Shown here piece by piece: positions 24,565 through 55,101 of a stretch of 64,000 bases of DNA (position 1 is the first letter of the stretch; each line of letters opens with the position of its first letter). A model generated the notes under the pieces. That model did no database searches. It was given only the letters and a program-made list of their open reading frames with translations, and had not been told where the DNA came from. The stretch covers positions 1 through 64,000 of the IMG/VR virus record IMGVR_UViG_3300037847_007805. One strand, written 5' to 3'. The DNA is from a virus. The translations under genes and the position numbers were made by a program.

Positions 24565-24984
24565 ATGAAAAGAAGCGGTAGAAAGAGTAAGGCTCAAACT
24601 CCTGCACCCCGTAAAGACAGAATAAAAGGTTCAAAAACCAATGTCAAAGGTAGTGCTAAAAGTCGAACCTCTGCTCGTTCTATCAAATTTTCTGATTCAA
24701 CTTTAAACTCTATAAAATCAAAACTAAAAGAATACAATGCTAAAAATCCAAATAAAAAAATTTCCCTACCAACTGCAAAAGCTGTTGTTAGAAGGGGAAT
24801 GGGTGCATATTCTACATCTTACAGACCCACGATAAGGGGTGGTAAACCAAATAGTAGGAATGCATGGGGTCTTTCAAGGTTGTATGCTTTTATGAGAAAA
24901 AAAAGTCGTTCTGAATCCGCAAAAGGAGTTGTTCCAAAAAGAGCAATTAAAAAATCTTATGTTCAAGATAATGATTTATTATAA
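24565..24984 (+). CDS. basic protein, DUF5824-like
   Basis: KAVVRRGMGAYSTSYRP...AWGLSRLYAF...DNDL. Confidence 0.6.
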   Translation: MKRSGRKSKAQTPAPRKDRIKGSKTNVKGSAKSRTSARSIKFSDSTLNSIKSKLKEYNAKNPNKKISLPTAKAVVRRGMGAYSTSYRPTIRGGKPNSRNAWGLSRLYAFMRKKSRSESAKGVVPKRAIKKSYVQDNDLL

Positions 24985-25277
24985 TGGGTTACAGAATTAC
25001 AGATTATACAAAACAACAAGCTAAAAAACTTGGTGTTGAAGTAAAGCCTTCTAAAACGAAAGGTAAAAAAATAGATGTCTTTAAAAAAGGCAAAAAAGTT
25101 GCTTCTGTAGGTGCTATAGGATATAAAGATTTTCCTACTTACTCAAAACTTGAAAAAAAAGGTATATATGAAAAAGGGTATGCTAATAAAAGAAGGAAAC
25201 TTTACAAAATAAGACACAAAAAAGACAGGAATGTTAAAGGTAGTGCAGGTTACTACGCAGATAAATTATTATGGTAA
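24984..25277 (+). CDS. basic protein, Tlr6F/DUF5754-like
   Basis: ITDYTKQQAKKLGV...GAIGYKDFPTY...RRKLYKIRH...SAGYYADKLLW. Confidence 0.7.
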   Translation: MGYRITDYTKQQAKKLGVEVKPSKTKGKKIDVFKKGKKVASVGAIGYKDFPTYSKLEKKGIYEKGYANKRRKLYKIRHKKDRNVKGSAGYYADKLLW

Positions 25278-26373: not shown

Positions 26374-26695
26374 ACCTACAAATCAAACAGCAGAAACTAC
26401 AGGGGCTGAAGCAGTAGCCTCTCAAGATACAGCAGGGGCAGTAGATAGTACAAGCCCTTCGCCATCTAATTTTGAAGAAGGTGGTGAATTAAAAGCAGGT
26501 GGGGAATACTCACTTGTATATTATTTGACATTTGCATTATTACTTTCTGCATCAGCTTATAGTATTTATTATCATAGACAGGCATTAAACAAATTAATGG
26601 ACGATGATAATGATGAACTAAAAAGAGAAGTGCGTGAAGTAAAATCTAATCTTAAAAAATTAATGGGCAACAAGTATGAAATTATCACTAAATAA
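26363..26695 (+). CDS. membrane protein
   Basis: FEEGG motif followed by TM helix and coiled coil. Confidence 0.65.
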   Translation: MENKPTNQTAETTGAEAVASQDTAGAVDSTSPSPSNFEEGGELKAGGEYSLVYYLTFALLLSASAYSIYYHRQALNKLMDDDNDELKREVREVKSNLKKLMGNKYEIITK

Positions 26696-27326
26696 TATAA
26701 CATACGGAAATCCTAATTCATCTCACAAGAAGGCTTTATCAAAAACCTGTCTTGTGGATTCTTTATTTGAGGAACTAACAAAATTTCCATTTCCTGAAAA
26801 TGAAAGCGATACTACAAAACAAGAACTAAATGAACTTGTAGATTACTTAGAAGATATGGACATTGTAGATAATGAAAAAATTAGAAAAAGATACATTTTC
26901 TACGATAGAAACCTATTTCAAGCAATCATAAATACTTTCAGAACTGATAAAGTAGATATAAAACAACTTATAAACGATATTGATAATGACATAACAGGTT
27001 TAATAGTAAAATTAAAATACTTTTACCAAAGACCAAGACCTTATCAACTTGCCAATTATTACAAACTAAAACTTTTTCCAATAAATACAAAATCGGGACA
27101 TTCACCGTCTTATCCAAGCGGACACACTACACAGGCTTATGTAATTTTAACAATTTTAGGAAATCTTGTGCCTGAATACTATCAAAAAACAAAAAAAATG
27201 ATAGAAGATGTTGCGTATAGCAGATGCTATATGGGTGTCCATTATCAAACTGATAATGATTTTGCGTTTCTTGTAGCACAAAAGATTTTAAAACAACCTG
27301 AATTTGTTGAAAAATATGGAATTTGA
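26676..27326 (+). CDS. PAP2-superfamily phosphatase/haloperoxidase-like protein
   Basis: KYFYQRPRP, SYPSGH, SRCYMGVHYQTD (C1-C3 motifs). Confidence 0.85.
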   Translation: MKLSLNNITYGNPNSSHKKALSKTCLVDSLFEELTKFPFPENESDTTKQELNELVDYLEDMDIVDNEKIRKRYIFYDRNLFQAIINTFRTDKVDIKQLINDIDNDITGLIVKLKYFYQRPRPYQLANYYKLKLFPINTKSGHSPSYPSGHTTQAYVILTILGNLVPEYYQKTKKMIEDVAYSRCYMGVHYQTDNDFAFLVAQKILKQPEFVEKYGI

Positions 27327-27723
27327 AAACATTACTTTTCCTGTTTGTCCTTTTCCAAAACCGAGAATGACACAAAGAGATAGGTGGAAAAAAAGACCTG
27401 TTGTAGTCAAATATCATATTTACAAAGATAGCATGAAGCACTATGCAAATGAATTTAATTATTGTGTAGATGAGGATTTATCTTTGACATTTATAATGCC
27501 CTTTCCTAAATCTTACTCAAAAAAGAAAAAAAATGAATTAAGAGGAAAACCACATAGGTTAAGACCTGATTTAGACAATCTACTAAAAGCATTCAAAGAT
27601 GCTCTTTGTCAAGAAGATTCATATATACACACTTATAGTAGTATTCAAAAAATATGGGGAGATGATGGAAAAATCATAGTAAAGAAACTTAAACTTGAAG
27701 AAAATGACACTACTCCCGAATAG
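27316..27723 (+). CDS. rusA: RusA-like Holliday junction resolvase
   Basis: KPRMTQRDRW, RPDLDNLLKAFKDAL, KIWG. Confidence 0.85.
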   Translation: MEFENITFPVCPFPKPRMTQRDRWKKRPVVVKYHIYKDSMKHYANEFNYCVDEDLSLTFIMPFPKSYSKKKKNELRGKPHRLRPDLDNLLKAFKDALCQEDSYIHTYSSIQKIWGDDGKIIVKKLKLEENDTTPE

Positions 27724-28300
27724 CAATAAATCAAAACACGAAGATTTATTTATTGAATTTTCATATTTCACAAGAGATTATGGAACAAATGCTTTATTGC
27801 ATAATTTAAAAATTCTAAACGATTCTTCAGGCTACCTTGAAAACCAATCCTCACAAGAAGAAATTTTGACACATGAATTGGGTCTTGCTTTTTCAGAATA
27901 TGGCATAAATTTTATTTCACTTTTTTTTCAAACAAATCGAACTAAAATGCTTAATTTTGAATACAGCGAAAACTCGGCATTAAATGACAAGGTTTTTGAA
28001 ATTATTTGTAGGGTTTTTAAAACTACCAAGGATTCAATCTTAGACAAGTTTGATAGAGATGGAGTAAGAGTTTATGCAAGTGGTTCGCTATTTAAATTGT
28101 TATTAGATACTTGTGGATATAGTGTAAAAGAGGTAATGTTGCTCACAGGAAAGCCAAGAAGCATAATTAGTAGACACAAAAACATAATCAGCAATTTAGA
28201 CCATAAACACATATTTGATAAAAAGATTATCAAAAAATTTATAGAATCTAAAAAACAATTAATTAAATATATTTTAAATGAGTACAAGCAAGAAAACTAA
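27704..28300 (+). CDS. hypothetical protein with C-terminal HTH-like region
   Basis: GYSVKEVMLLTGKPRSIISRH. Confidence 0.5.
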   Translation: MTLLPNSNKSKHEDLFIEFSYFTRDYGTNALLHNLKILNDSSGYLENQSSQEEILTHELGLAFSEYGINFISLFFQTNRTKMLNFEYSENSALNDKVFEIICRVFKTTKDSILDKFDRDGVRVYASGSLFKLLLDTCGYSVKEVMLLTGKPRSIISRHKNIISNLDHKHIFDKKIIKKFIESKKQLIKYILNEYKQEN

Positions 28301-29252
28301 TGACGAAGCAGAAGAAGTAGAGTTTGAAGAAGTCGGCTCTTTTGATGCTAACCCTGATTTTTCTCCTTTTGACGAACCTGTTAAAGAAAGAGATTATACT
28401 AAGCCAAACATAGATGCTTCACAAATTGAAGGTGAATTAGAAGAACCTACATTTGAAGCACCAAGTTTTTCTGATTTTGAAGAAGAAGAAGAACCCAAAC
28501 CATTTAATCCAAGTTACAATGAATTAGGTAATAAGGAAAAACAAATGGGTGCGGAAATGATTGCAGACGTTGTAGTAGACGGATATGCTCGTTTGAAAAA
28601 AGGTATGGGTAGCCTTTCCACTATTTCAGAAAATAAATTAGAAAGAGAATTTGCTGAAGGAAATATCAACCCTAATTTACAATTACCTATAGATGAATAT
28701 GGAAATACTGCATCTATTAGAGAATTTGTAAAAGAGTTTAATGAAACAAGTAAAGAAGCGTTTGATACTCCTCAAGATTTTAAAGAAAAAGTAAAGCCAC
28801 CTCTTATTAGAGTATTCAAAAAAAGAGGTGTAGGAATGACTGATGAACAGTTATTACTTTACTATTTTGGAACTGACTTTGCTACAGCAGGTATTACCGC
28901 ATTTGGTCTTAAAAAATCAGCAGATGGGATTTTGAAACAATTAAGAGAACAAACTGATTTAATGCGTTCTCCCGCAAGTCCACCACCCCCACCTTCTAAT
29001 CAATCATCAACAGATGTTTCGGAAAGTGAAAGTGAGTTTGAAGAACCTGAAGAAGTTTTTGAGGTACAGCCCGATATAGTAGCACCAAAGAAACAGTCGA
29101 ACTCAAACTTTAGTTCAGAGCAAGAAGTTCCTGAAAATATGCCTTCTTTTGGCGACCCTGCTATTTTGAAGGAGATTGATAAGATTGCTTCACAAGAGAA
29201 CTTAGATTCAAAACCCAAACGAAAAAGGGGTAGACCTAAAAAGAAAAAATAG
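28278..29252 (+). CDS. acidic protein upstream of the packaging ATPase
   Basis: E/P-rich termini, hydrophobic central helix, C-terminal KRKRGRPKKKK. Confidence 0.7.
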   Translation: MSTSKKTNDEAEEVEFEEVGSFDANPDFSPFDEPVKERDYTKPNIDASQIEGELEEPTFEAPSFSDFEEEEEPKPFNPSYNELGNKEKQMGAEMIADVVVDGYARLKKGMGSLSTISENKLEREFAEGNINPNLQLPIDEYGNTASIREFVKEFNETSKEAFDTPQDFKEKVKPPLIRVFKKRGVGMTDEQLLLYYFGTDFATAGITAFGLKKSADGILKQLREQTDLMRSPASPPPPPSNQSSTDVSESESEFEEPEEVFEVQPDIVAPKKQSNSNFSSEQEVPENMPSFGDPAILKEIDKIASQENLDSKPKRKRGRPKKKK

Positions 29253-29257
29253 GCATT

Positions 29258-29410
29258 ATGTTTACCAAGGAAACAAATACATTAACTAACCTGTTTTTAC
29301 GGGGAATTAGTTTAACAACTCCGTGTGTTACTTATACATACATAACTTTAGATAATCAAACATTTGTTTGTATAGATGAAAAATACACGATAAAATATCA
29401 TACAATATGA
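29258..29410 (+). CDS. small hypothetical protein (50 aa, not in ORF track)
   Basis: ATGA overlap with the ATPase start. Confidence 0.4.
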   Translation: MFTKETNTLTNLFLRGISLTTPCVTYTYITLDNQTFVCIDEKYTIKYHTI

Positions 29411-30219
29411 GAGAGCCAAAATTAGGAGTAGCTGTAGGGAAAAAAGGTGTAGGGAAAACTTACACTACTGATAAGGTAATACAAAGCTATGTTCAAGGTA
29501 ACCCGAGCAAAGGTGTAAAACCAAGACGAGCATTAATACTTGATGTAAATGATGAATTTGAACATATAAAAGCCTTACGAGTAAAAGACGTTATGAAGTT
29601 TTCTGTCCACCCTACCGTAGAAGCAAGAAGAATACGACCATTTATGGAAGATGGTCAAAAAATGACCATAAGAGAAATTCAAGAAACTTTATTTGAAATC
29701 TTAAGACACTATAGAGGCGGTTTACTTTTGATAGAGGATATAAACAGATATATTTCAGACCAACTACCAAATGACGTTGTGGGTGCTATATGTACAAACA
29801 GACACTCTGACACAGATATAATTCTTCATTTTCAATCTATTGGAAGGGTAACTACAAAAATTTGGCAGAACCTAAATTGGTTAAGATTTCATAAAAACAC
29901 CGATTCTGTAGATAGACACAAACACAAATTTGAAGATAAATTTGAATATCTTAAAATAGCAGAAATTTTAGTAAACCATAAATACTATAATGGCGATGAA
30001 AGATATTTTTTATATGTAGATGTTGATAGTGAGAAGATATTAGGAAACGTATCAAAAAAAGATTTAGATTTTGCTATCGAGGAATACATTTCTAAGTATT
30101 ATAAAAAAATTGTTACTCCACTTTTAAATCAAGTTGGCATGGACGGAAAAAAGAAATATACACCCGAATCAGCCATCAAAGAGATTAAATCCAAGATTTA
30201 CAAGAATTTTAGTAAATAA
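29407..30219 (+). CDS. A32/P9-like (FtsK-HerA superfamily) genome-packaging ATPase
   Basis: N-terminal Walker A GKKGVGKT, LILD strand, Walker B LLLIED, NRH arginine motif, HFQ glutamine motif; 270 aa, no nuclease domain. Confidence 0.75.
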   Translation: MREPKLGVAVGKKGVGKTYTTDKVIQSYVQGNPSKGVKPRRALILDVNDEFEHIKALRVKDVMKFSVHPTVEARRIRPFMEDGQKMTIREIQETLFEILRHYRGGLLLIEDINRYISDQLPNDVVGAICTNRHSDTDIILHFQSIGRVTTKIWQNLNWLRFHKNTDSVDRHKHKFEDKFEYLKIAEILVNHKYYNGDERYFLYVDVDSEKILGNVSKKDLDFAIEEYISKYYKKIVTPLLNQVGMDGKKKYTPESAIKEIKSKIYKNFSK

Positions 30220-30285
30220 ATGCAATTATCCTTTTTATTTGCAGATAATTTTATTTATTAAAATAAAAATTATTATAAAAGACAA

Positions 30286-30293
30286 TATATTTG
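30286..30293 (+). promoter_or_regulatory. Bacteroidota -7 promoter element TATATTTG
   Basis: upstream of the 30357/30537 unit. Confidence 0.6.
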
Positions 30294-30356
30294 AAGCGTA
30301 GATAGTTCTGTAACTGTTTACGCTAATTTATTTATTAACTTTTATATCATTCTGTA

Positions 30357-30485
30357 ATGAATACCAAAGTGCTTATGGAGTTTGGTAAGTCCGTTTTAAC
30401 TGTCGTTGTAGGAGTAGCTGTATATAATGCAGTAAAACCTATGCTCGATAAGGCAAAATTGTCTGCACCAAGTTCTGACGAATAG
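30357..30485 (+). CDS. small membrane protein (42 aa, not in ORF track)
   Basis: MNTKVLMEFGKSVLTVVVGVAVYNAVKPMLDKAKLSAPSSDE, apparently co-transcribed with the capsid candidate. Confidence 0.65.
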   Translation: MNTKVLMEFGKSVLTVVVGVAVYNAVKPMLDKAKLSAPSSDE

Positions 30486-30536
30486 TCAAACGAAATTTTA
30501 AAAATTATTTATTAACCTTATTTTAAATTATTTATC

Positions 30537-31229
30537 ATGTCAAATGTACGCAGATATTTAGCAAATGCACAGAGAATGGCAAACGAATCTTTCTCTAATG
30601 CAGATGGTTTCATTGATGATGATTTGTCTTTCACAGGCGAAGATTTTTTCAGTGCTAATGGAGTAGGCGGTGGTTCAGCACCAACTTCTCAACCATATAT
30701 TGTTACTGTAACTTCTACATCAGGAAGTGCTGTATCAAACTTTAAGGTGCTTGGTTCTTACGAGTATCTTAACAATTCAGGTTTCACCGCAGGTGGCGAC
30801 CTTGTAATTGGTTCAATCACTATTTCAAGTGGAATTTCAGGTATCACATACCGTGAAATGTTGTACCAATTTATGAACAATCCGTATAGTGTAGGACTTA
30901 CTTATGTACAGTCAGCTACAGCTAATCAGATTTTGGAAACTATTTCTGTTAATACAAGAGATGCTAACGGTAATGAAGCACAAAAAACACTTGTGCCAAC
31001 AATCGACCCGTATCAGCAACAATCTACAGTATTAGCTATGAAATATGCTTACCGAATTGATGGTTTCACAAAACTAATCATTCGTCAGATTTTAGCTAAC
31101 GCTACTGTTAAATTGTACTTCTACCCATCTGACAACATTAACCTTGCAAGAGGTCTTGCAGGACAAAATGTTTCTCGTCAGTACGGAAACCCAGGCATTG
31201 TAAAAGCACAAACTATCAAATTAACATAA
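30537..31229 (+). CDS. candidate major capsid protein (beta-rich, possible single jelly-roll)
   Basis: follows the packaging ATPase, has its own promoter and terminator, strand-rich, paralog at 54559. Confidence 0.55.
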   Translation: MSNVRRYLANAQRMANESFSNADGFIDDDLSFTGEDFFSANGVGGGSAPTSQPYIVTVTSTSGSAVSNFKVLGSYEYLNNSGFTAGGDLVIGSITISSGISGITYREMLYQFMNNPYSVGLTYVQSATANQILETISVNTRDANGNEAQKTLVPTIDPYQQQSTVLAMKYAYRIDGFTKLIIRQILANATVKLYFYPSDNINLARGLAGQNVSRQYGNPGIVKAQTIKLT

Positions 31230-31269
31230 TTAGATAGTTAATGCTTAACAATAGTATTGGATAATTAAC

Positions 31270-31305
31270 AAGGGGCGGATTGATTTATTCAACTTGCCCC
31301 TTTTT
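31270..31305 (+). terminator. intrinsic terminator
   Basis: AAGGGGC-GGATTGA-TTTAT-TCAACTT-GCCCCTT hairpin + T tract. Confidence 0.75.
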
Positions 31306-31319
31306 AAAATTTAAAAACT

Positions 31320-31685
31320 ATGGACGTATATAATTATGTAGCAGGTGCATCACCAATTAAAGCACAGGGTATTATAAACAGCTTTGGATATAAAGTCGTA
31401 GATAAAAACGATATGGGTGGAAACCTTAAGTCGCTTGTGGCAAAAGAGGGAGAACCCGCACTTAAAATGATATTAGAATCACACCCTGATAAAGATGTGA
31501 TTTTAGAACTTTACGGAACTTCTGAAGGGGAGTGTAAAACCTGTAGAGATTCACAAATTATAGAAAAATTTTTAAACGCAAGTGGTAAAGAGCAAAGCGA
31601 GGCTAAAAAAAGTGATAATAACTTTTCATTAGTTTTCCTTGCAGGTATTTTGGCATTATCATTTGCAATCATTTCAAAAAAATAA
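31320..31685 (+). CDS. structural membrane protein, NAxG family
   Basis: CKTC, FLNASG, C-terminal TM + KK. Confidence 0.7.
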   Translation: MDVYNYVAGASPIKAQGIINSFGYKVVDKNDMGGNLKSLVAKEGEPALKMILESHPDKDVILELYGTSEGECKTCRDSQIIEKFLNASGKEQSEAKKSDNNFSLVFLAGILALSFAIISKK

Positions 31686-31688
31686 AAA

Positions 31689-32360
31689 ATGGCTCGATTT
31701 AACAAATTAGGACAAGCTATTGGTATTGCCATTTCAAAAGATGAGCAGGGAATAAGAAATTTGCTTCAAAGAAACGGTGTATCAACAGCTAACATAAAAA
31801 CTAAAAACCAACTTGCAGATGTTTTTGTAGAATCACTTGTCGCATCTAAAGGTTTGGCTCAAGATTTTTCAAACTATGTAAAATCTAAAGATAATGTAAA
31901 CTTCATGTATAATAATGCAGGTGGAATGTATAACAACATGACATTAGAAATGTCATCTTTTGCAAGTGTTGTTGGTGATGGAGTGCCTGATGCTTATAAT
32001 ATGACGGGAGATGAATCAAATACTAACATTTGGTCGCCTTCAGGAACAAGCACTTCAGTAAATGCTGATGGCGAAAATGAAGAAGAAAAGAAAAAAGGTG
32101 GATTTTTTGAAGGAATAACCTTAAAAGAAATACTTAATCAAGCTAAAGATATTTACTTAGCTGATAAAAATGATTCAATCGCAAGACAAGAAACAGAACA
32201 AATAAAGACAATAGCTAACACGCAAATCAATAACGATAATTTTTCACCTAACAGAACTTCTCCTGAAAAAAAATCAAACACAGGACTATATATTTTCCTT
32301 GGTGTTTTAGGATTAGCAGTCGTTGGTGGGGTTATTTATTTCGTATCAAAAAAGAAATAA
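31689..32360 (+). CDS. structural membrane protein, NAxG family
   Basis: IRNLLQRNGV domain, YNNAGG, C-terminal TM. Confidence 0.7.
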   Translation: MARFNKLGQAIGIAISKDEQGIRNLLQRNGVSTANIKTKNQLADVFVESLVASKGLAQDFSNYVKSKDNVNFMYNNAGGMYNNMTLEMSSFASVVGDGVPDAYNMTGDESNTNIWSPSGTSTSVNADGENEEEKKKGGFFEGITLKEILNQAKDIYLADKNDSIARQETEQIKTIANTQINNDNFSPNRTSPEKKSNTGLYIFLGVLGLAVVGGVIYFVSKKK

Positions 32361-32361
32361 T

Positions 32362-32961
32362 ATGGCAACACAAGACCAATTACGTCAATTAGGAAATGCT
32401 GTAGGATTTTTGTCAGTAGCTGATATTCAAGGGCTTTCTAACCTTTTAGCTAAATATGGCAATATGCCTGATAACATTTCTTATCAAAGTTTGAATAAAG
32501 CAACAATAGAATCTTTATCAAACCGAAATTTTTACCAAGAATTTTTAAGATTAGTTTCTGCTAATGTAAAAGAGGTTGCTCAAATTAACCAATTCAGCAA
32601 TGTAGCAGGTGATACGGTTGCAACTACCCCTGCAACCACTCCCGCTTCAACGGGTTCAGGCTTTTTTTCAGGGTTTAACTTAAACACTCTAATCGGTCTT
32701 GGAACTACTATTTACGCAACTGAATCAGCAGGAAAACAACAAGACAGGCTGTTAAATGCTCAAGCTAATCAACAAGCACAGCAAAACCAAGATACGATTA
32801 TGGCAGGTCAATTAGCTTTAGAAACCGAAAAATTAAAACTTGCTCAAATTCAGGCGGGTGGTGGACAAGGCGGTGCTAACAACACTATGCTATATGTAGG
32901 ATTAGGTATATTAGGATTACTTGTAGTTGGTGGAGTTATTTACGCAGTAGCTAAAAAATAA
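32362..32961 (+). CDS. structural membrane protein, NAxG family
   Basis: LSNLLAKYG domain, FSNVAG, Gly-rich amphipathic segment, Q-rich coil, C-terminal TM. Confidence 0.7.
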   Translation: MATQDQLRQLGNAVGFLSVADIQGLSNLLAKYGNMPDNISYQSLNKATIESLSNRNFYQEFLRLVSANVKEVAQINQFSNVAGDTVATTPATTPASTGSGFFSGFNLNTLIGLGTTIYATESAGKQQDRLLNAQANQQAQQNQDTIMAGQLALETEKLKLAQIQAGGGQGGANNTMLYVGLGILGLLVVGGVIYAVAKK

Positions 32962-32964
32962 TAT

Positions 32965-33192
32965 ATGAAAAGTCCAAAAGAGATAGTTGAAGATGTTTCT
33001 TCAATGACCGATGAAAAGAAAAGAAAAGCATTTATGGTAAAAGCACAGTCAAGTGTGCATGGTGCTTTTTGGGGTGGTGCTTTTGGTCTTATGTTCGCTT
33101 TTTATAAAGGCAAAAATAAATATACAAGTGCCTTATTAGGTGCGGGTATTGGTGCGTTAGTGTCGAACCTTTTAACCGTTGAAAAAAAATAA
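32965..33192 (+). CDS. glycine-zipper membrane protein
   Basis: GAFWGGAFG...LLGAGIGAL. Confidence 0.7.
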   Translation: MKSPKEIVEDVSSMTDEKKRKAFMVKAQSSVHGAFWGGAFGLMFAFYKGKNKYTSALLGAGIGALVSNLLTVEKK

Positions 33193-33196
33193 AATT

Positions 33197-33469
33197 ATGA
33201 TAAATCCCGAAAGAAAGTATACGTTTGGCGACCCCAAGAATAAAAGTCAATTTTTTATAGATAATAATGTGACAATTTTACCTGTTAGGGGTGATAGAAT
33301 GACAAAAGAGGAACAAAAAGCTAAAATAGAAGAAGAAAAAATAAAATTACAGGCAAGTCAAGATGAAAAGAAAATAAAGGAAAAAATCAAAAGAAATAAA
33401 AATGTTCTTATATATGTGGCTGTAGCAGTAGCAGGTTTCTTTGCTTATAAAAAATTATTTAAAAAATAA
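33197..33469 (+). CDS. C-terminally anchored protein
   Basis: YVAVAVAGFFAYKKLFKK. Confidence 0.7.
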   Translation: MINPERKYTFGDPKNKSQFFIDNNVTILPVRGDRMTKEEQKAKIEEEKIKLQASQDEKKIKEKIKRNKNVLIYVAVAVAGFFAYKKLFKK

Positions 33470-33473
33470 AGTT

Positions 33474-33812
33474 ATGAGAAAAATGAGTAAGGAAGCACAA
33501 TTAGAACGCTTAAGAAAAAAATTAGCAGAATTTGAGGCTATCATGCAAAAAGGCGGTAAAGTTCAAGGTACTGTTGATAGTTTAAGAAAACAAATTGCTG
33601 TTTTAGAACAAGCAACTTCAAAAAGCGACAAAAACATTGACTTAAGCAATTTAAAACCTGTCGGTGGTTCTGACACAGAAAAAGAAGTTTTTGAAATGCA
33701 AAGACAAGAATTTGAAAAGGAAAAAAAGAAAGAAAAAAATAAAAAAATTCTTTTATACGTTGCCCTTGCAGTAGCAGGTTTCTTTGCTTATAAAAAATTA
33801 TTTAAAAAATAA
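33474..33812 (+). CDS. C-terminally anchored protein
   Basis: YVALAVAGFFAYKKLFKK; 3' end identical in DNA to the previous gene. Confidence 0.7.
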   Translation: MRKMSKEAQLERLRKKLAEFEAIMQKGGKVQGTVDSLRKQIAVLEQATSKSDKNIDLSNLKPVGGSDTEKEVFEMQRQEFEKEKKKEKNKKILLYVALAVAGFFAYKKLFKK

Positions 33813-34238
33813 ATGATGCATCATTCAGATTACATGGAAGATTTTAACAATGCTATGGGTGGAAATTATAATTTCGGACTACATGGTTTTAAGCCTTCAA
33901 AAGGTAGTTTACTAAATACTTCTGTATTGGATAAAAAATTACGAGGAATTAGTGATAGTAGTGAATTGAAATCTGATGTCCAACCATCTGAAGAAGAATT
34001 ACAAATGCAAGAAAAATATATGCAAGAGTTGATAGATGCAAATAAAAAATATCGTGCTACTTTAATTGGTGGTAGGATAGGAAGTTCTTTGGGCTTCATT
34101 GTAGCTTTAGGCTACGCTTTTAAAGTAAAGTCAGGATTTTGGAAAGGTTGGGGTTATACAATCTTGGGAAGCATGGCTTTAGGTGGATTAGGGGCAGGAG
34201 TAGGTTTTGCTATTGATTCATCAAAGAAGAATAATTAA
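33813..34238 (+). CDS. membrane protein
   Basis: FNNAMGG near N-terminus, two C-terminal Gly-rich TM segments. Confidence 0.7.
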   Translation: MMHHSDYMEDFNNAMGGNYNFGLHGFKPSKGSLLNTSVLDKKLRGISDSSELKSDVQPSEEELQMQEKYMQELIDANKKYRATLIGGRIGSSLGFIVALGYAFKVKSGFWKGWGYTILGSMALGGLGAGVGFAIDSSKKNN

Positions 34239-34266
34239 TATATGTTAAACTTTAAATTTTAAAACT

Positions 34267-34386
34267 ATGAAATTAGATGTTAAATCTTTAGTAGGAGTAG
34301 CAGTATCAGTTGCTGTACTTTATGTAACCGTATATTACGGTGGACAAGCGTGGAAGCGTTCTCAAGAAGGTGAGAAACTATTATAA
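34267..34386 (+). CDS. small membrane protein (39 aa, not in ORF track)
   Basis: MKLDVKSLVGVAVSVAVLYVTVYYGGQAWKRSQEGEKLL. Confidence 0.65.
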   Translation: MKLDVKSLVGVAVSVAVLYVTVYYGGQAWKRSQEGEKLL

Positions 34387-34389
34387 TAA

Positions 34390-34491
34390 ATGAAACAAAG
34401 AACTTTAATAGGATTTTTTTTAGTTGTTGCAGGGATTGGGGGTCTATCTTATGTTTACAATCGTTACATAAAGGACGATTCTCAATCGTAG
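34390..34491 (+). CDS. small membrane protein (33 aa, not in ORF track)
   Basis: MKQRTLIGFFLVVAGIGGLSYVYNRYIKDDSQS. Confidence 0.6.
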   Translation: MKQRTLIGFFLVVAGIGGLSYVYNRYIKDDSQS

Positions 34492-34506
34492 CAATGTTAT
34501 TATAAT

Positions 34507-34770
34507 ATGGAAAAGTCAGCAAATCAATTATGGAGAGAAAGCGGTACTTCATTATCTTTTAAAGATTGGATTCAAAGAGAGAAAGATAAAGGTGTACAAA
34601 TAAAAAACAAACTCCTTGAAAATGTTGTCGATTCGTTTAAAGAAACTGACGAACAAGACACAATAGATACAACAAGGTTTGCCTTTGGAATACCAAAATG
34701 GGTAGTTTATACAGGTGTTTCAATTTTAACCTTTGCTGTTGTATATAAACTTTACAAAGCCAAAAAATGA
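34507..34770 (+). CDS. C-terminally anchored protein
   Basis: SFKDWI; C-terminal TM + KAKK. Confidence 0.7.
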   Translation: MEKSANQLWRESGTSLSFKDWIQREKDKGVQIKNKLLENVVDSFKETDEQDTIDTTRFAFGIPKWVVYTGVSILTFAVVYKLYKAKK

Positions 34771-35555
34771 ATTTAAGGATTAATACCCGATATGAAGAAC
34801 TATCCTTGGCTATATATGTACAAACACTTGCACCCTGCAAAATCAGGATAAAAGTTTTTGATGCAGAACAGCCTAAAACTGTTTTTACCGACAGGTATAA
34901 AACCGTAAAAGGAAAAGAGGTTTTTTATGTCAGAATGCCCTTAACTTCAAGCAAGGTAATTGTAAGCATATACAACGAAGCTGTTGGAAATAAAAGGAAA
35001 GGCGAAGATAGTAGCTTTATTGTTACAGAGGTCAAAAAACTTCCGTTGCAAAAAAGAACAGATGTTGGCGATATAAAAGATTATACCGTTTCAGCTTTTG
35101 TAGATTTTGCACAAAGGTTTTCATTTAATGCCTCGTATTTAGACGACAATAAAACTTATCAGAGCCAAAGCGGAGAGTTTTTGATAGAGTATTTACCAAA
35201 TATAGTTAGTTCAAAAACAGGGAAAAAAATGAAAACCCCTGCTCGAATTTCCAAAGTAAATGGTAGAATACAAGTATCAAAAGAAGCGTTTGACACATAT
35301 ACTGTACCTATGCGTATGGCTATATTGTTACACGAATTTTCCCACTTTTATTTAAATGATAATATGGACGATGAGGTTGAAGCTGACCTTAATGGTCTTT
35401 TAATCTATTTAGGCTTGGGCTATCCAAGGATAGAAGGTTATCAGGCTTTTTTAGAGGTGTTTCAAGAAAGTCCATCACAACAGAACAGAAACCGTTATGA
35501 TATTATAAATAAATTCATAAGGGATTTTGAGAATAATAAAATGGTAATGAATTAA
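34767..35555 (+). CDS. zincin-type metallopeptidase
   Basis: AILLHEFSH (HExxH) followed by EVEAD. Confidence 0.7.
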   Translation: MNLRINTRYEELSLAIYVQTLAPCKIRIKVFDAEQPKTVFTDRYKTVKGKEVFYVRMPLTSSKVIVSIYNEAVGNKRKGEDSSFIVTEVKKLPLQKRTDVGDIKDYTVSAFVDFAQRFSFNASYLDDNKTYQSQSGEFLIEYLPNIVSSKTGKKMKTPARISKVNGRIQVSKEAFDTYTVPMRMAILLHEFSHFYLNDNMDDEVEADLNGLLIYLGLGYPRIEGYQAFLEVFQESPSQQNRNRYDIINKFIRDFENNKMVMN

Positions 35556-35566
35556 AAAAATTAAAC

Positions 35567-35704
35567 ATGGCAAAGAAAATGAACGCATATATGAAAGCAC
35601 TACAAAAAGCAAGAAAAAGCGGTGCAAGTAGTTTTAAGTACAATGGCAAAACATACAAGAAAGCTAAGACCAAAACAGGTATGGTAATTTATAAAGCAAG
35701 ATAA
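35567..35704 (+). CDS. small basic putative DNA-binding protein (45 aa, not in ORF track)
   Basis: MAKKMNAYMKALQKARKSGASSFKYNGKTYKKAKTKTGMVIYKAR. Confidence 0.7.
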   Translation: MAKKMNAYMKALQKARKSGASSFKYNGKTYKKAKTKTGMVIYKAR

Positions 35705-35705
35705 A

Positions 35706-35963
35706 ATGAAAAATAGTACAATTATAACCTTGTTAGCAGGTTTAAGCCTTTTCTTGTTGTTTGAAAAATATGGTAAAAAGAAAAAAGGTTGCGGTTGCAA
35801 AGGAAAAGAGGACAGTCAAGTCGAACCTTCGGATTCTGATGATGTTGATTGTCAAGAAGCAGTCGATATGATTATGGCAGAAAGAATGAAAACAATGAAA
35901 ATGTCCCAAGAGGCTTTTGCAAAAATGAGAGAAGAAGAATTAGAAAAATGTAAAAACTCATAA
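35706..35963 (+). CDS. N-terminally anchored protein
   Basis: TM then KKKKGCGC. Confidence 0.65.
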   Translation: MKNSTIITLLAGLSLFLLFEKYGKKKKGCGCKGKEDSQVEPSDSDDVDCQEAVDMIMAERMKTMKMSQEAFAKMREEELEKCKNS

Positions 35964-35966
35964 ATT

Positions 35967-36407
35967 ATGTCTTTACAGTCAGTTAAAATCTTGCCAACAA
36001 AAAACAGTTCCGACCAAGAATGGCTATCGTGGTACTTAGATTTAAAAAACCTTATAGGTACTAAAAAAGCTAACAGAATTTTTACAATGCTTTGGAATAA
36101 TGAAGATGGGTATAATTCTGATGCAAACTCCGTGTATTTACGAGATGAAATGGAAGGTTACGGAGTAGAGATAGCAGGTGGAGTTATTGGTGATGTAGCT
36201 GATTTCTTTTCTACTGCTAAAGGTTACTTTGGTGGATTTTTTACAGCAGGAAAATGGATTGGTATTGTATTGGCAGGTGTGGTTGTTGTTTCTGTAGGTG
36301 GATTACTATTACAGATAGCTTTCAAACCATCAGTAAGACAAGAAGCTGTAAAAATTGGCACAGCAATAGGTACAAGAGGAATGTCTGAACTCCCCGCAAA
36401 AAAATAA
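35967..36407 (+). CDS. membrane protein
   Basis: Gly-rich amphipathic stretch and TM. Confidence 0.7.
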   Translation: MSLQSVKILPTKNSSDQEWLSWYLDLKNLIGTKKANRIFTMLWNNEDGYNSDANSVYLRDEMEGYGVEIAGGVIGDVADFFSTAKGYFGGFFTAGKWIGIVLAGVVVVSVGGLLLQIAFKPSVRQEAVKIGTAIGTRGMSELPAKK

Positions 36408-36413
36408 TTAAGA

Positions 36414-36893
36414 ATGACGAGGCAACAAAAAATAATAGTTTATGCAAGTGTAAGTGCTTTAAGCATTGGCTATCTGTCTTATAAAGCTATTAGAAGAAAT
36501 CAAATTTATAACGAATTGATTGGTGTAATAGAAAAAACAGGTGGTGGATATAATAAGAGTAAAAATGAAAGTGCATTAAAAGGTACTCTACACCCCATAA
36601 TAGAAAGTCAAAACTATGATAAGGGTATAATTATTTTACAACCTGATGAAGTAAAAAACAGAGCAGAAGCATTATTTAGTGCTATAGATGGGGCAGGAAC
36701 AGATGAAGAAAAAATTGCTTCTGTTATTACGATGTTCAATGATAAATTTGCTTTATCACAGGTTGCATCTTTTTATAGAGCAAAATATAATGAAACTCTT
36801 TATGATGCACTAAAGGGAGATTTGAATAATAGCGATTTTGAGTATTATGTAACGGAAAACATGGCAAAATTGCCTGAAGTAAGATTTGTTTAA
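36414..36893 (+). CDS. membrane-anchored annexin-repeat-like protein
   Basis: ALFSAIDGAGTDEEKIASVI...QVASFYRAKYNETLYDALKGDL matches the annexin GxGTDE repeat. Confidence 0.65.
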   Translation: MTRQQKIIVYASVSALSIGYLSYKAIRRNQIYNELIGVIEKTGGGYNKSKNESALKGTLHPIIESQNYDKGIIILQPDEVKNRAEALFSAIDGAGTDEEKIASVITMFNDKFALSQVASFYRAKYNETLYDALKGDLNNSDFEYYVTENMAKLPEVRFV

Positions 36894-36903
36894 AAAAAAA
36901 GCT

Positions 36904-37416
36904 ATGAATAAAAACACAAAAACACTTTTATATGTATTAGGCGGAGTAGTAGTTTCCGTAGTAGGAGTATTTGCTTATACGCTTTTAAAAAACAGAAAAT
37001 CTGCTAATATAACAGATTTGAATATAGACGAAGTAATAAAAGAAGAAAGCCAAAATACAGGAACGCAAAATAATGAAGTAGCGGATAATGAAGCTATATT
37101 GGGACAAGCTATTCCTTCAAGAGAAAGTTTCCCATTACAAATTGGTATGTATGGAAAAAATGTTCATGTAATGCAACAAGCCTTAAAAGAATTAGGAAAT
37201 TATAGTGGAAAAATAGATGGTAAATATGGGGCATTAACAGACGAAGCGTTAGATAAAGGCGGTTCAAGGTATAATGGAAGTATGTGTGGTAATTGGCTCG
37301 TAGGGGCTTGTGAAGTAACAATGTCAGGATTTAACAGATTGATGGCTGATGCAAAAAGAGAAAAAGGGTTTGATAAAGATTTGGCATTGATAGAAGCCCA
37401 AAAAATGTATTTGTAA
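36904..37416 (+). CDS. membrane-anchored peptidoglycan-binding domain protein
   Basis: FPLQIGMYGKNVHVMQQAL...IDGKYGALTDEAL. Confidence 0.75.
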   Translation: MNKNTKTLLYVLGGVVVSVVGVFAYTLLKNRKSANITDLNIDEVIKEESQNTGTQNNEVADNEAILGQAIPSRESFPLQIGMYGKNVHVMQQALKELGNYSGKIDGKYGALTDEALDKGGSRYNGSMCGNWLVGACEVTMSGFNRLMADAKREKGFDKDLALIEAQKMYL

Positions 37417-37435
37417 CTTATTTAAATGGTTTTAT

Positions 37436-37840
37436 ATGAGTTACAGTTCATATTTGAAAGGAAAGGCACAAGCAAATCAAGATTTAAGGAATAAATATCT
37501 TGCAACAAAGAGTTGTCCTGATGCCTTAAAAAATAGAGATGAATTACAATTTGTAGTTTCTGACCTTACAAAAAAAGCAATAAATAGTGATTATTGGCGA
37601 GGCTATTCTGATGCACACGCACAAAGGCTCAAAGATGTTTCGGCATATTACAATTTTGGTGATTGCGACAATTATTTTAATCGCTATAAGGTTGATAAGT
37701 TGGGCAAAATAGTAGATAAAAAAAATACAAAAGCCCAAGAATTAATTAATGCACAAACCAAAAAACAAAATAGGCTTGTCTTATTTGTTGGATTTGCAGT
37801 TATGTTAGTTGGAACAATAATTATTTTAAAAAGAAAATAG
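37436..37840 (+). CDS. C-terminally anchored protein
   Basis: C...DLTKK...C, TM; similar to 37843. Confidence 0.7.
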   Translation: MSYSSYLKGKAQANQDLRNKYLATKSCPDALKNRDELQFVVSDLTKKAINSDYWRGYSDAHAQRLKDVSAYYNFGDCDNYFNRYKVDKLGKIVDKKNTKAQELINAQTKKQNRLVLFVGFAVMLVGTIIILKRK

Positions 37841-37842
37841 TT

Positions 37843-38277
37843 ATGAAAAAGCTAATAGATAAAATTAAAAATATACAGCAAAATAGGTCAGATGCTGAAA
37901 ATTCTGCTACAAACATTAATAATTTAGGTATAAACAAGACAAACACCTTTACTATTTGTGCAGATTTAGACCAAAAAATTACTCGGTACGATGTGCTTAT
38001 TGCAGACCTTACAAAAAAAAATGTAAAGGGTAAATCATACGGAGATTTAATAAAAAAATATAGTTCTGAAAGATTAGAACTACAAAAAAGATTTACACGA
38101 TTATCGTGTTTAGAAGAAATAGAATTTCAAAAGTTAGAAGAATCTGCTGACATTTTAGACACGCAGTTTTCTCAAGCTGAAATAGATATTCTTGAGAAAT
38201 CAAGAAAAGAACAAAATAAACTGTATTTCATTGGTGCAGGAGTTTTATTATTAGGTGCATATATAATTATTAGATAA
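37843..38277 (+). CDS. C-terminally anchored protein
   Basis: C...DLTKK...C, TM. Confidence 0.7.
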   Translation: MKKLIDKIKNIQQNRSDAENSATNINNLGINKTNTFTICADLDQKITRYDVLIADLTKKNVKGKSYGDLIKKYSSERLELQKRFTRLSCLEEIEFQKLEESADILDTQFSQAEIDILEKSRKEQNKLYFIGAGVLLLGAYIIIR

Positions 38278-38489
38278 TGAAAAGAGAATATAATTATAGG
38301 GGTATTTATGATAAAGATGAAGTCGGAAGAATAAACGACTTACTTGGTACGCAAAGAGAACTGTTTATAGAAGAAGAAAAAAAACAGCTTCCAACACAAC
38401 AAAAAGTTCAAAAATACTTTTTGATTGCGATGGGAGTTTCATTAATTATTGTATTAACTAAAGTTTTATCAAATGGAAAACGCAAATAA
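38277..38489 (+). CDS. small membrane protein
   Basis: C-terminal TM. Confidence 0.65.
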   Translation: MKREYNYRGIYDKDEVGRINDLLGTQRELFIEEEKKQLPTQQKVQKYFLIAMGVSLIIVLTKVLSNGKRK

Positions 38490-38781
38490 CATTTTAAATC
38501 CACCTCAAAATAATAATTGGGAAGAAAATGACAATTTCGCATCTAATACACTTGCTAAGGGCGAAGGTATCGTAAAAGACATCGTAGATGGTGCTAAAGA
38601 TACTTTTAATCTTGCTGTAGAAGAAGCAAAAACTGTAGCACCTGATGTAGTTGATGTTTTTGAAGAATCATCAGACAGGTTGAATGCAGAGCCAAGAATT
38701 ATAAAGGCTGTACCTAACAACTATTTGGTTTATGGAGTTGTATTGTTAGCATCTTATATTATTGTCAAGAAGGTGCTGTAA
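38473..38781 (+). CDS. C-terminally anchored protein
   Basis: C-terminal TM + KK. Confidence 0.65.
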   Translation: MENANNILNPPQNNNWEENDNFASNTLAKGEGIVKDIVDGAKDTFNLAVEEAKTVAPDVVDVFEESSDRLNAEPRIIKAVPNNYLVYGVVLLASYIIVKKVL

Positions 38782-39344
38782 TGAGAAAACTGTTTTTTTA
38801 CGGTGGTATTGGTATTATAGGTTACGCTTTTTATTCATATTTTAAAAAGCAATATAACCTTGCGGTAAACTATACCTATCGTTTAAAAGACATCAATGTC
38901 CTTGAACTAACAAAAGAAAAAGCAACCTTAGATTGTACAGTAGAAATTAAAAATAAATCCTCTTTTCAAGTAGAAATAAGAGGCTGGGATTTAGTTTTTA
39001 AATACAAGGGTGTTGAATTTGCTGACACAAAAAGCAATGAAAGATTTGCAATACCACCTGATTCAGTATTTTCTGTAAGTGCAGTTGGAGATTTAGATTT
39101 TACTAATTACAAAAGTGTTTTGTACCCCGCAGTTTTAGATATACTGTCAAGAAAACCGATTGACGTTCAAGTTGATGGAAAGCTATTTGTAACTTTCATG
39201 GGAATAAATAGAACAATTAATTTTAGTGATGAAGAATTTAGATATTCAGATGATATTATTGAAGAAGTTGGTTTAGGTAAAAAATATGATAAAACTTTAG
39301 CAAAAATCCAAGATATATTCGGTAAAATTGGAGTAAAAGTTTAA
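38781..39344 (+). CDS. membrane-anchored LEA_2/WHy-like domain protein
   Basis: N-terminal TM; VEIKNKSSFQVEI...YKGVEFA...IPP. Confidence 0.6.
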   Translation: MRKLFFYGGIGIIGYAFYSYFKKQYNLAVNYTYRLKDINVLELTKEKATLDCTVEIKNKSSFQVEIRGWDLVFKYKGVEFADTKSNERFAIPPDSVFSVSAVGDLDFTNYKSVLYPAVLDILSRKPIDVQVDGKLFVTFMGINRTINFSDEEFRYSDDIIEEVGLGKKYDKTLAKIQDIFGKIGVKV

Positions 39345-39374: not shown

Positions 39375-39770
39375 ATGATACAGCAGATTACGAGTAAAAT
39401 TATGCTTGGTGGTATTTGTAAATATGCAAATATATATCAAGATGAAGAAAAAAATGTTCAGATAAGAGTGTCTAAAAATGGAGAAGATTCATTGAATTAT
39501 GAAATGTGTCAAAATTGGCAACCAAAAGAATCGGTAACTTTTAAAGACATACTTAATAAAAAAATAGACATTCTTGGTTATGAGCAACTGTCTACTCCTT
39601 TTTTGCTTAAGTCATTAAACTTATATCAAAAAGAGTTTGAGGCAGAAAATGAAACATTGAGCATATTTCTCTTTAACAGAAATGATAAAGTGGGATTAGC
39701 TGTTTTTGAAGATAAGAAAAATTTAAAATTATTAACTCTATCAAAACATTTTGAGCAATTAGGATTATAA
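39375..39770 (+). CDS. hypothetical protein
   Basis: ORF in operon. Confidence 0.65.
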   Translation: MIQQITSKIMLGGICKYANIYQDEEKNVQIRVSKNGEDSLNYEMCQNWQPKESVTFKDILNKKIDILGYEQLSTPFLLKSLNLYQKEFEAENETLSIFLFNRNDKVGLAVFEDKKNLKLLTLSKHFEQLGL

Positions 39771-40049
39771 ATGGCTACTACAAGAAGAAAGACCGTGAGT
39801 GTGAGCAACGCTGATATTAATTGGATTAAAGACCAATTACTTGAACAGCACACAGTTTTGATGAAACTTAACCAAACTATAATTGGGGATAAAGAGTACG
39901 GTCAAAAAGGTCTTGTCGAGCAAGTAAATGACCATAGAAGGTACATTCTTAAAGACCAAAATCTCAAAGCTAAATTTGTGGGCGGTACAACTGTAGTAGG
40001 TGTTGTATGGACTTTATTGCTCAAGTTTTGGGATAAAATTTTTGCTTAA
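39771..40049 (+). CDS. small membrane protein
   Basis: IIGDKEYGQKGLV, C-terminal TM. Confidence 0.65.
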   Translation: MATTRRKTVSVSNADINWIKDQLLEQHTVLMKLNQTIIGDKEYGQKGLVEQVNDHRRYILKDQNLKAKFVGGTTVVGVVWTLLLKFWDKIFA

Positions 40050-54558: not shown

Positions 54559-55101
54559 ATGGGAGTATATTCACCATCAACAACATCTTTTCCTAACGGG
54601 GTGGTTACTATAGAAAGTGAAGATGACACTTTGTATAGCACCATTCAAGAAGCTGTTGCAGGTTCTCATAACTACCAAATCAATGAAATTTACCTAAAAG
54701 CAAACGACATATCCCAAATCCTACAGCCGATTACTTTTCAAAAGTATGATTCAAATGGAGATATTCTTGAGGATAAAAGAGTTCCCACAGTAGACCCATT
54801 TTCATTTCAACCTTCTATAAAAATAAATTTTAAAAACAAGGATTATATTTTAGATGGTCGCTTAGAAATAGATTATACAGTCAAAGGTGGAGAAGAAGTT
54901 TATTTCTATTTAGATACGACTGTGTTAGACAATGGTGCATTACTTGGCGATGATAAAAGTATGCCGAAAGATTTTTTGAAAACATATAATTTTTTCCAAG
55001 ATTACGGAAAAGAAATAGAAATTGATTTTAGTTATGACGAAAGGGCAATACCTGAATGCACAGACCAAGAGGCGAGTGATTTCAGGACTGAAAACAGGTG
55101 A
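54559..55101 (+). CDS. paralog of the capsid candidate (minor capsid/vertex protein)
   Basis: SQILQPI...DSNG...VPTVDPFSFQ...YILDG...VYFY aligns with NQILETI...DANG...VPTIDPYQQQ...YRIDG...VKLYFY. Confidence 0.65.
   Translation: MGVYSPSTTSFPNGVVTIESEDDTLYSTIQEAVAGSHNYQINEIYLKANDISQILQPITFQKYDSNGDILEDKRVPTVDPFSFQPSIKINFKNKDYILDGRLEIDYTVKGGEEVYFYLDTTVLDNGALLGDDKSMPKDFLKTYNFFQDYGKEIEIDFSYDERAIPECTDQEASDFRTENR

Follow-up and report, generated by a model that had tools for sequence, protein, structure and literature searches.

Gene content of a large bacterial virus points to a tailless, membrane-containing virion plan

A probable packaging ATPase gene beside a jelly-roll gene

The DNA analyzed here (the window) comprises positions 1 to 64,000 of the 79,409-bp virus record IMGVR_UViG_3300037847_007805, whose contig continues for a further 15.4 kb. 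This single record has a G+C content of 30%; its genes point rightward up to about 56.9 kb and leftward beyond, and its right end cuts through an open reading frame (ORF). An earlier interpretation made without database searches (the sequence-only reading) had placed a morphogenesis module at 28278-39344. The elements that it named are found at these places, but the module is wider than proposed, extending from about 24984 to about 56958. In our view, the region probably serves virion assembly in a large bacterial virus whose genome is linear double-stranded DNA and whose particle follows a tailless, membrane-containing icosahedral plan, not the plan of a tailed phage. The tailless shape and the membrane are deduced from the gene content, at the center of which stand the following features.

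29407..30219, plus strand: g47, putative 270-amino-acid genome-packaging ATPase of the A32/P9/B204 type (FtsK-HerA superfamily)
30295..30324, plus strand: terminator-like hairpin 3' of the ATPase gene
30357..30485, plus strand: 42-amino-acid hydrophobic (transmembrane) ORF just 5' of g48
30537..31229, plus strand: g48, 230-amino-acid predicted single jelly-roll protein, candidate major capsid protein
about 31270..31306, plus strand: hairpin with GC stem and T-run after g48, read as an intrinsic terminator

The sequence-only reading had described g47 as a P-loop ATPase with RH and Q motifs of the A32/P9 type, and the ATPase gene lies where that reading placed it. Walker A (GKKGVGKT) occupies residues 11 to 18 and Walker B (LLLIEDIN) residues 106 to 113, with G11, K13, G14, G16, and K17 as well as L107, L108, E110, D111, and N113 invariant across 44 homologues; a TNRH...HFQS block at residues 130 to 144 is likewise invariant. 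At the sequence level, g47 matches AAA_22 weakly in Pfam and phrog_2666 with an E value of 9e-7, and it has 972 metagenomic homologues, some with the HerA central-domain family PF01935. Sequence and profile searches of g47 and g48 against all PDB chains returned P-loop noise or nothing, and tblastn of both proteins against 50,697 GenBank phage records gave no match.

Structure was more informative. The AlphaFold2 (AF2) model of g47, built from 44 homologues, reached a predicted local distance difference test (pLDDT) score of 90.7, and in a Foldseek search of the PDB, B204 of Sulfolobus turreted icosahedral virus (STIV) and STIV2 filled ranks 1 to 15 (best E value, 4.3e-9; target TM-score, at most 0.68). 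The next family, Zot, followed at an E value of 2.5e-6, about 600-fold worse. B204 is the best and the sole full-length structural match, while HerA, VirB4, and DndH align through their ATPase cores alone; at 270 amino acids, with Walker A starting at residue 11, g47 has a minimal single-domain build and none of the additional domains found in HerA, VirB4, and FtsK. Thus, g47 groups nearest to B204, which we take to be the solved representative of the A32/P9 packaging-ATPase clade and the only one of this type, and ahead of HerA, DndH, and VirB4, as the packaging role proposed for it would predict. Because B204 leads the structural matches, the assignment of the modeled g47 as an A32/P9/B204-type packaging ATPase is well supported. 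Compared with B204 of STIV and STIV2, P9 of PRD1, and A32 of vaccinia virus, g47 shows 15-17% identity and no sequence-level match to solved structures, carries about 55 additional C-terminal residues, and belongs to a genome 4 to 8 times larger than those of the viruses encoding these enzymes.

The spacer between g47 and g48 measures 318 bp. An RNA contig from metatranscriptome run X16 covers 30298-30490, and RNA contigs stop at 31253-31277, after g48. Hence, the separately transcribed, beta-rich capsid candidate of the sequence-only reading is borne out insofar as 30537-31229 lies between terminator-like hairpins (both called from sequence) and its AF2 model is rich in strands. A repeated TTATTTATTAAC box upstream of g48 was considered as a general element and discarded, as it did not extend to other genes.

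The model of g48, computed from a 109-sequence alignment, has a pLDDT of 81.8, with core values above 90. An N-terminal helix (residues 2-17) leads through an acidic linker modeled with low confidence (18-45) into a beta-sandwich of eight strands (about 50-215), the jelly-roll that a fold check had been expected to show. Fold searches returned jelly-rolls exclusively, including picornavirus VP3, comovirus and nepovirus coats, and satellite tobacco mosaic virus, and Foldseek against BFVD gave low-TM matches to knobs and unnamed proteins alone. At the level of the model we regard the fold class as settled; this statement concerns the jelly-roll as such and leaves aside kinship to a particular capsid family, be it of the PRD1 or the SH1 type.

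Signs that g48 encodes a major virion component

Four independent lines of evidence suggest, indirectly, that g48 is a major component of the virion. It appears to be monocistronic between terminators. It is the most conserved of 14 proteins of the block across 35 IMG/VR relatives, with a mean identity of 77%, compared with 68% for g36, 64.5% for the ATPase, and 61% for g58. It ranks first of 89 genes in the share of C-ending NNY codons (0.44 versus a median of 0.216; standard deviation, 0.07; about 3 standard deviations above the mean), and a preference for C-ending pyrimidine codons is the usual mark of translational selection. Lastly, in two marine metatranscriptome runs of one study, the assembled contig covering exactly g48 had by far the highest k-mer depth among the contigs that match this virus exactly or near-exactly, 143 versus 3-17 (X16) and 14.6 versus 2-10 (X17), which, contig depth being a poor measure of expression, we therefore count as a hint. 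On these lines g48 is a candidate capsid protein, and the geometry of the shell is likewise a prediction.

The gene is also widespread. It is very common in public aquatic metagenomes, with 1916 relatives at the 90% identity cluster level and occurrences in runs of 11 studies; clustering at 50% leaves 574 representatives, most of them 220-250 amino acids long. Within the window, a second gene is related to it and adjoins a possible partner.

54559..55101, plus strand: g79, 180-amino-acid jelly-roll protein paralogous to g48, candidate for a second capsid protein or a vertex protein
55483..56958, plus strand: g80, 491-amino-acid Ser/Thr-rich protein beside g79; at a guess, a spike protein

The relationship of g79 to g48 is supported by BLASTP (E value, 7e-8) and hhalign (probability 98.5%; E value, 2.6e-15; 106 columns). 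The paralogue lacks the first strands of g48, has a C-terminal extension of its own, and is kept in two long relatives, G005 and contig C9. A complex prediction for the g48 core with g79 scored 0.00, with the fold of g79 uncertain, and was counted neither way. The neighboring g80 matches no Pfam or PHROG family, and the ESM Atlas gave sub-threshold leads alone, among them a weak FG-GAP lead with a score of 0.75. In G003, a 102-kb IMG/VR relative, a 397-aa protein in the variable left arm (L050:10001-11194) contains two full copies of the g48 domain in tandem. G003 also has a normal single-domain g48 gene. The tandem protein, a natural fusion of two jelly-rolls, is accessory and does not amount to a double jelly-roll capsid gene of the core.

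A run of small membrane proteins around a candidate protease

The jelly-roll gene is followed by a long series of small genes, and a further gene with a likely link to lipids stands at the head of the block.

26676..27326, plus strand: g42, PAP2-family lipid phosphatase (Pfam PAP2; E value, 1.8e-12)
31320..34770, plus strand: g49-g55 and g57, eight small proteins, each with a membrane anchor at the C terminus and a tail rich in K
34767..35555, plus strand: g58, soluble 262-amino-acid protein with an HExxH zinc-protease motif (HEFSH), candidate maturation protease
35706..39344, plus strand: g60-g68, nine further small membrane proteins

Between 31320 and 39344, a hydrophobic segment is present in 16 of the 18 plus-strand ORFs; 13 of these segments anchor the C terminus, and a K/R tail, usually made of lysines, comes after most of them. 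Across the window, hydrophobic segments were counted in 42 of 95 ORFs of at least 45 amino acids, in good agreement with the roughly 40 small transmembrane proteins reported before. Three proteins of the downstream group matched Pfam domains: g62 (36414-36893; 159 amino acids with an N-terminal membrane anchor) contains an annexin repeat (E value, 2.5e-6; 27.9 bits, above the Pfam cutoff), g63 a PG_binding_1 domain (E value, 1.6e-6), and g68 a membrane-anchored LEA_2 beta-sandwich (E value, 9.1e-8). The annexin repeat is unusual for a phage. Together with the PAP2, annexin, and LEA_2 domains, the 16 membrane ORFs suggest that the virion would contain an internal lipid membrane.

The HExxH protein g58 matches Peptidase_M56 weakly in Pfam (E value, 0.034) and occurs in 30 of the 35 relatives. 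A short motif, [FY]xN[AV]xG, lies in the linker of g48, which is disordered, as well as in g49, g50, g51, g55, and g75 (30537-34238 and 53107-53658), and it recurs in the G005 orthologues (L038, L039). Genome-wide the motif is not strongly enriched (6 copies versus 2.9 ± 1.6 in shuffles), with five of the six copies lying within one 3.7-kb stretch by g58, which would be the obvious candidate protease for it.

Candidate fibre and accessory proteins of the module

24984..25277, plus strand: g36, 97-amino-acid very basic protein, candidate DNA-condensing or core protein
28278..29252, plus strand: g45, 324-amino-acid acidic protein with a basic RGRP/K-rich C terminus, candidate packaging accessory or scaffold
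39375..40049, plus strand: g69 and g70, two conserved small proteins before the fibre gene, with homologues in G005 and in C9, a contig of a metagenome-assembled genome (MAG)
40053..51371, plus strand: g71, 3772-amino-acid repetitive protein rich in Thr, Ser, Gly, and Cys, candidate host-recognition fibre at a variable locus

The giant g71 contains 4% Cys, 18% Thr, 13% Ser, and 12.5% Gly, with repeats and a local G+C content of up to 38%. It has no Pfam match and a weak PHROG match to a tail-fibre connector (E value, 2e-4, over 52 amino acids). A homologue is absent from G005, which has a 1018-aa ORF at about that position, just downstream of its g70 homologue. Neither g69 nor g70 belongs to a Pfam family. 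The acidic g45, without a Pfam or PHROG family, is always directly upstream of the ATPase gene and occurs in 33 of the 35 relatives. The basic g36 ranks second in conservation within the block (23 of the 35 IMG/VR loci), and its sole Pfam match is a weak, sub-threshold one to DUF5754. It adjoins another small and very basic protein, g35 (both within 24565-25277).

No detectable hallmark genes of tailed phages

The sequence-only reading recognized no terminase, portal, HK97 capsid, or tail gene in the 64 kb, and this held when the search was widened. No Pfam or PHROG match to any of these was found in all 17 ORFs of at least 280 amino acids and many smaller ones on the 79,409-bp contig, where the sole "terminase" label is phrog_2666, on the B204-like ATPase g47. 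In a six-frame profile search of five relatives of 72-102 kb, all rated complete, Terminase_6N, TerL_ATPase (PF03237, PF03354), Phage_capsid (PF05065), and Phage_portal (PF04860) had no match at an E value of 1 or below. Neither the scanned ORFs in the rest of the contig nor these relatives thus provided a match to the large terminase subunit (TerL), a portal, or HK97.

The replication genes expected by the same reading are present in part. RecT (E value, 3.6e-46), an exonuclease (E value, 4.7e-71), an initiator-type Phg_2220_C protein, and a RusA-type resolvase were identified, whereas a single-stranded DNA-binding protein could not be confirmed among the scanned ORFs, nor was a replicative polymerase found there.

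27304..27723, plus strand: g43, RusA-type Holliday-junction resolvase (Pfam RusA; E value, 6.2e-10, above the curated cutoff)

The profile of protein-primed DNA polymerase B (PolB; PF03175) gave nothing at an E value of 1 or below in the window's contig and four relatives including G005. A "miniature PolB" suggested at 60163-60870 finds no support in Pfam or PHROG. The left part of the window encodes glycosyltransferases, a 1244-amino-acid polyvalent protein with ART and RelA/SpoT domains, and a 1371-amino-acid lysine-rich protein. At 14093-16998, a CobS-like AAA_5/MoxR ATPase (phrog_249; E value, 2e-16) precedes a 515-amino-acid protein that is DUF7192-like by protein-language features, and the pair occurs in all long relatives examined. 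Lysis genes comprise an M23 peptidase and an amidase-type endolysin with small transmembrane proteins beside them.

A syntenic lineage with large genomes and a provirus cousin

IMG/VR yielded 35 related loci, on contigs no longer than 102 kb. Every locus that reaches far enough shows the order PAP2, g45, ATPase, g48, g49 ... g57, g58, with the ATPase present in 34 of 35, g49 in 34, g42 in 32 (its order unchanged), and g57 in 30. Because gene order is conserved in 35 IMG/VR contigs, the arrangement in the window is more than a chance observation. Five long relatives (72.5-102 kb) are rated complete by CheckV, and relatives overall span 72-132 kb. The largest, the 132-kb contig C9, comes from the bin of a "Sediminibacterium sp." MAG and shares the collinear core between 21.8 and 116.6 kb; at 32%, its G+C content agrees with the 32-36% of three other contigs sampled from the same MAG. 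Of the five rated complete, G005 (72,545 bp) is collinear with the contig of the window throughout the core and carries an exact 123-bp inverted terminal repeat (L037:1-123 and the end of L040). The window's own contig has no terminal repeats; the sole BLAST match of the G005 repeat to it is 30 nt long, at 300-329. This segment corresponds to positions 24-53 of the repeat at 90% identity and could be a remnant or an internal part of a terminal repeat of its own.

When 401 Bacteroidota genomes were searched with the g48 profile, one more match came up, in a genome of 4.38 Mb that is assembled as a single contig and has a G+C content of 45%. The matching gene lies in a core with the order small transmembrane protein, 183-aa ATPase, 60-aa protein, 239-aa g48 homologue, 205-aa tail-anchored protein, and 81-aa lysine-rich protein. 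The g48 homologue (L058:8199-8918) aligns over profile positions 30-211 with an E value of 2.9e-10. The ATPase matches the g47 profile (E value, 5e-10) and phrog_2666, and it has the motifs GRRGCGKT and HRNRN...FMFHS, the latter being the counterpart of the TNRH...HFQS block. The 205-aa protein has a C-terminal anchor and a KQAKK tail. This core is flanked by a ParB-like protein upstream and by a beta-helix protein and a tyrosine integrase downstream, the integrase abutting tRNA-Arg(ACG), and a 17-bp exact repeat of the tRNA end bounds 21.7 kb (G045:C1, about 2,757,680-2,779,372; L058:1-19431 with L057:17680) in which no terminase was found. The element is a provirus integrated in the chromosome; its size is ordinary for tailless membrane viruses, and it carries the same ATPase, jelly-roll, and tail-anchored core in the same order. 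Its presence in a Bacteroidota chromosome ties the module to this phylum, and its core indicates that the ATPase and jelly-roll genes travel together across large distances, as a capsid and packaging pair should.

The host appears clearly bacterial because an M23 peptidase, an amidase-type endolysin, and PG-binding domains are predicted. Bacteroidota are the likely though unproven phylum, favored because Shine-Dalgarno motifs are few (1 of 114 genes versus a 4% background), MAG labels include Flavobacteriaceae and Sediminibacterium, and the provirus and the annexin domain point the same way. One g48 homologue with 94% identity comes from a Pelagibacter-labeled MAG, and a SAR11 host is conceivable for this particular virus.

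Comparison with known viruses

The design of Varidnaviria-type prokaryotic viruses combines an FtsK-HerA packaging ATPase with a jelly-roll coat and numerous small membrane proteins and has neither terminase nor portal. Small genome size is treated as a feature of this jelly-roll and FtsK-HerA architecture, and the largest cultured relatives reach about 31 kb. In contrast to these viruses, the present lineage has genomes of 72-132 kb, a coat candidate with a single jelly-roll, for which the known capsid proteins include no relative by sequence, inverted terminal repeats (in one relative) but no match to a protein-primed polymerase, replication genes based on recombination, and a giant, variable fibre candidate. 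Prokaryotic double jelly-roll virus genomes found by genomics measure about 7-18 kb (PMC5894146). Compared with every described bacterial or archaeal virus of this build, the genome is larger several times over, and in the literature covered and in the GenBank phages we found no description of such a virus. The much larger and possibly undescribed lineage that the sequence-only reading had envisaged is supported by the size of the relatives and by the lack of detectable hallmark tailed-phage genes.

Two known groups come closest. Helvetiavirae/Halopanivirales (SH1, HHIV-2, and P23-77) have two single jelly-roll capsid proteins, and the present lineage resembles them in its single jelly-roll candidates of about 230 and 180 amino acids, its A32-type ATPase, and its many small membrane proteins. 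The linear SH1-type genomes end in inverted terminal repeats, as does that of G005, and to our knowledge also lack a recognizable polymerase. However, g48 and g79 are 24 kb apart rather than adjacent, g79 lacks the first strands, the fold-search lists for g48 contain no structural match to VP16/VP17 or VP4/VP7, and the known hosts are haloarchaea and Thermus, with genomes of 16-31 kb versus 72-132 kb here. Tectiliviricetes (PRD1, Bam35, PM2, and Autolykiviridae) have a double jelly-roll capsid, a single jelly-roll penton, and an internal membrane. Shared with them are the packaging ATPase, the series of small membrane proteins, the inverted terminal repeats known from PRD1 (here in G005), and a weak jelly-roll similarity of g48 to the P31 and P1 penton domains; different are the absence of a recognized double jelly-roll core gene and of a protein-primed PolB match. 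The tailless, membrane-containing Flavobacterium phages FLiP and phiCjT23 differ from the present lineage in having single-stranded DNA genomes of less than 10 kb and a double jelly-roll capsid protein, and we know of no packaging ATPase in them. A conserved unknown gene directly upstream of the ATPase gene, the place of g45 here, has been described in PM2-like phages (PMC9502842).

If the proposed design is correct, the monocistronic and apparently very highly expressed g48 would supply a single jelly-roll coat protein, with the truncated paralogue g79 and the adjacent g80 probably acting at the vertices. About 20 small virus proteins, mostly tail-anchored, would enter a host membrane that becomes the lipid layer of the virion, a step in which the lipid phosphatase g42, the annexin-repeat protein g62, and the LEA_2 protein g68 could help. 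The B204/P9/A32-type FtsK-HerA ATPase g47 would then pump the genome into the preformed particle at one vertex, possibly assisted by the acidic, AT-hook-like g45. The zincin g58 may trim precursors at the common [FY]xN[AV]xG motif, and the giant, variable g71 would be the receptor-binding fibre.

Alternative explanations

Several points weigh against a tailless, membrane-containing virion. The lineage is known from sequence alone, so that lipid, particle, and packaging are all deduced. Many ORFs have no family, and a very divergent HK97 capsid or portal is conceivable among those whose structures were not modeled. No double jelly-roll core gene was recognized, structure models having been made for g47 and g48, and the g48 domain is also used outside the core, as the accessory tandem copy in G003 demonstrates. 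Terminal repeats occur in just one of the five long relatives, the window's own contig being cut at its right end. Finally, the RNA evidence consists of assembled contigs of one study.

It is conceivable, if unlikely, that the virus is of the same type but g48 is a vertex (penton) protein or spike knob, with the true major capsid protein, possibly a double jelly-roll, hidden among the unmodeled core ORFs such as g18, g27, g28, and g80. The top rank of g48 in conservation, codon bias, and RNA depth fits hundreds of copies better than 60, its provirus homologue sits by the ATPase gene, the usual place of a capsid gene, and g27 resembles the DUF7192 partner of the CobS-like ATPase rather than a capsid protein. 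Very improbable, in our view, is a highly divergent tailed phage whose HK97 capsid, portal, and terminase are past profile detection and whose B204-like ATPase has another job. Such a phage would account for the many ORFs without a family, for RecT, RusA, the exonuclease, the CobS-like ATPase, and the polyvalent ART/RelA-SpoT protein, all typical of tailed phages, and for weak PHROG matches to tail-fibre-connector and tape-measure-embedded domains. Yet TerL is normally the easiest phage gene to detect, and the four Pfam profiles for terminase, capsid, and portal were empty in five relatives, as was PHROG for every ORF of at least 280 amino acids on the window's contig. Moreover, the tape-measure matches sit on peptidoglycan-hydrolase domains of 158- to 173-amino-acid proteins, and the position of the ATPase gene beside the jelly-roll gene is fixed even in the 21.7-kb provirus, where no terminase was found either. 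We give hardly any credence to a nonviral origin, in which a mobile element, carried in vesicles or resembling a linear plasmid, would transfer DNA by means of an FtsK-HerA ATPase and many membrane proteins. The best and sole full-length match of g47 is a viral packaging enzyme, lysis genes are present, one jelly-roll gene appears hugely expressed, and IMG/VR files the relatives as viral genomes; relaxase, coupling-protein, and VirB4-type genes did not turn up in general scans, in which no profile aimed at them was searched.

Returning to the tailless, membrane-containing plan, a broader proposal seems to us plausible at slightly less than even odds. The window might represent a group ranking at least as a family or an order and globally abundant in marine and fresh waters, whose members would be tailless bacterial viruses with a membrane, linear genomes of 72-132 kb, a single jelly-roll coat without a detectable sequence relative among known capsid proteins, and an A32-type motor. 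This group would be linked to integrated Bacteroidota proviruses of about 20 kb, would form the first large-genome branch of this architecture in bacteria, could be part of the non-tailed particles in seawater, and may process a lysine-rich core polyprotein in adenovirus-like fashion at repeated [FYM]-x-K-G-G sites. The same motor and jelly-roll candidate here reside on 72-132 kb alongside recombination genes, glycosyltransferases, a polyvalent effector, and a 3772-amino-acid fibre candidate. Should particles confirm the design, the size range of this virion type in bacteria would be widened several-fold, and some of the non-tailed particles, which dominate seawater counts, would gain a genomic identity. 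The 21.7-kb provirus in a single-contig Bacteroidota chromosome would then be a tractable entry point and a possible laboratory model.

Further observations

The 1371-amino-acid lysine-rich protein g29 (17889-22004) contains 23 GG dipeptides, about 15 of them in [FYM]-[AE]-K-G-G contexts between unrelated or duplicated segments. About nine similar K-G-G sites are present in the N-terminal 220 residues of the polyvalent protein g24 (9506-10200), plus FEKGG at residue 1005. Neither the adenain (PF00770) nor the Ulp1 (PF02902) profile had a match on the contig of the window, so that no protease could be assigned to the repeated x-K-G-G motif.

No tRNA genes were found in the window, in the remaining 15.4 kb of the contig, or in G005. 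The end of C9 (L049:12035-12276) carries three, for Pro, Gln, and Leu, followed by a AAATTCCCACG-type simple repeat. The gene pair at 60163-61770, which includes the former "miniature PolB" and a basic protein, is kept in relatives with 43-52% and 26-31% identity, respectively.

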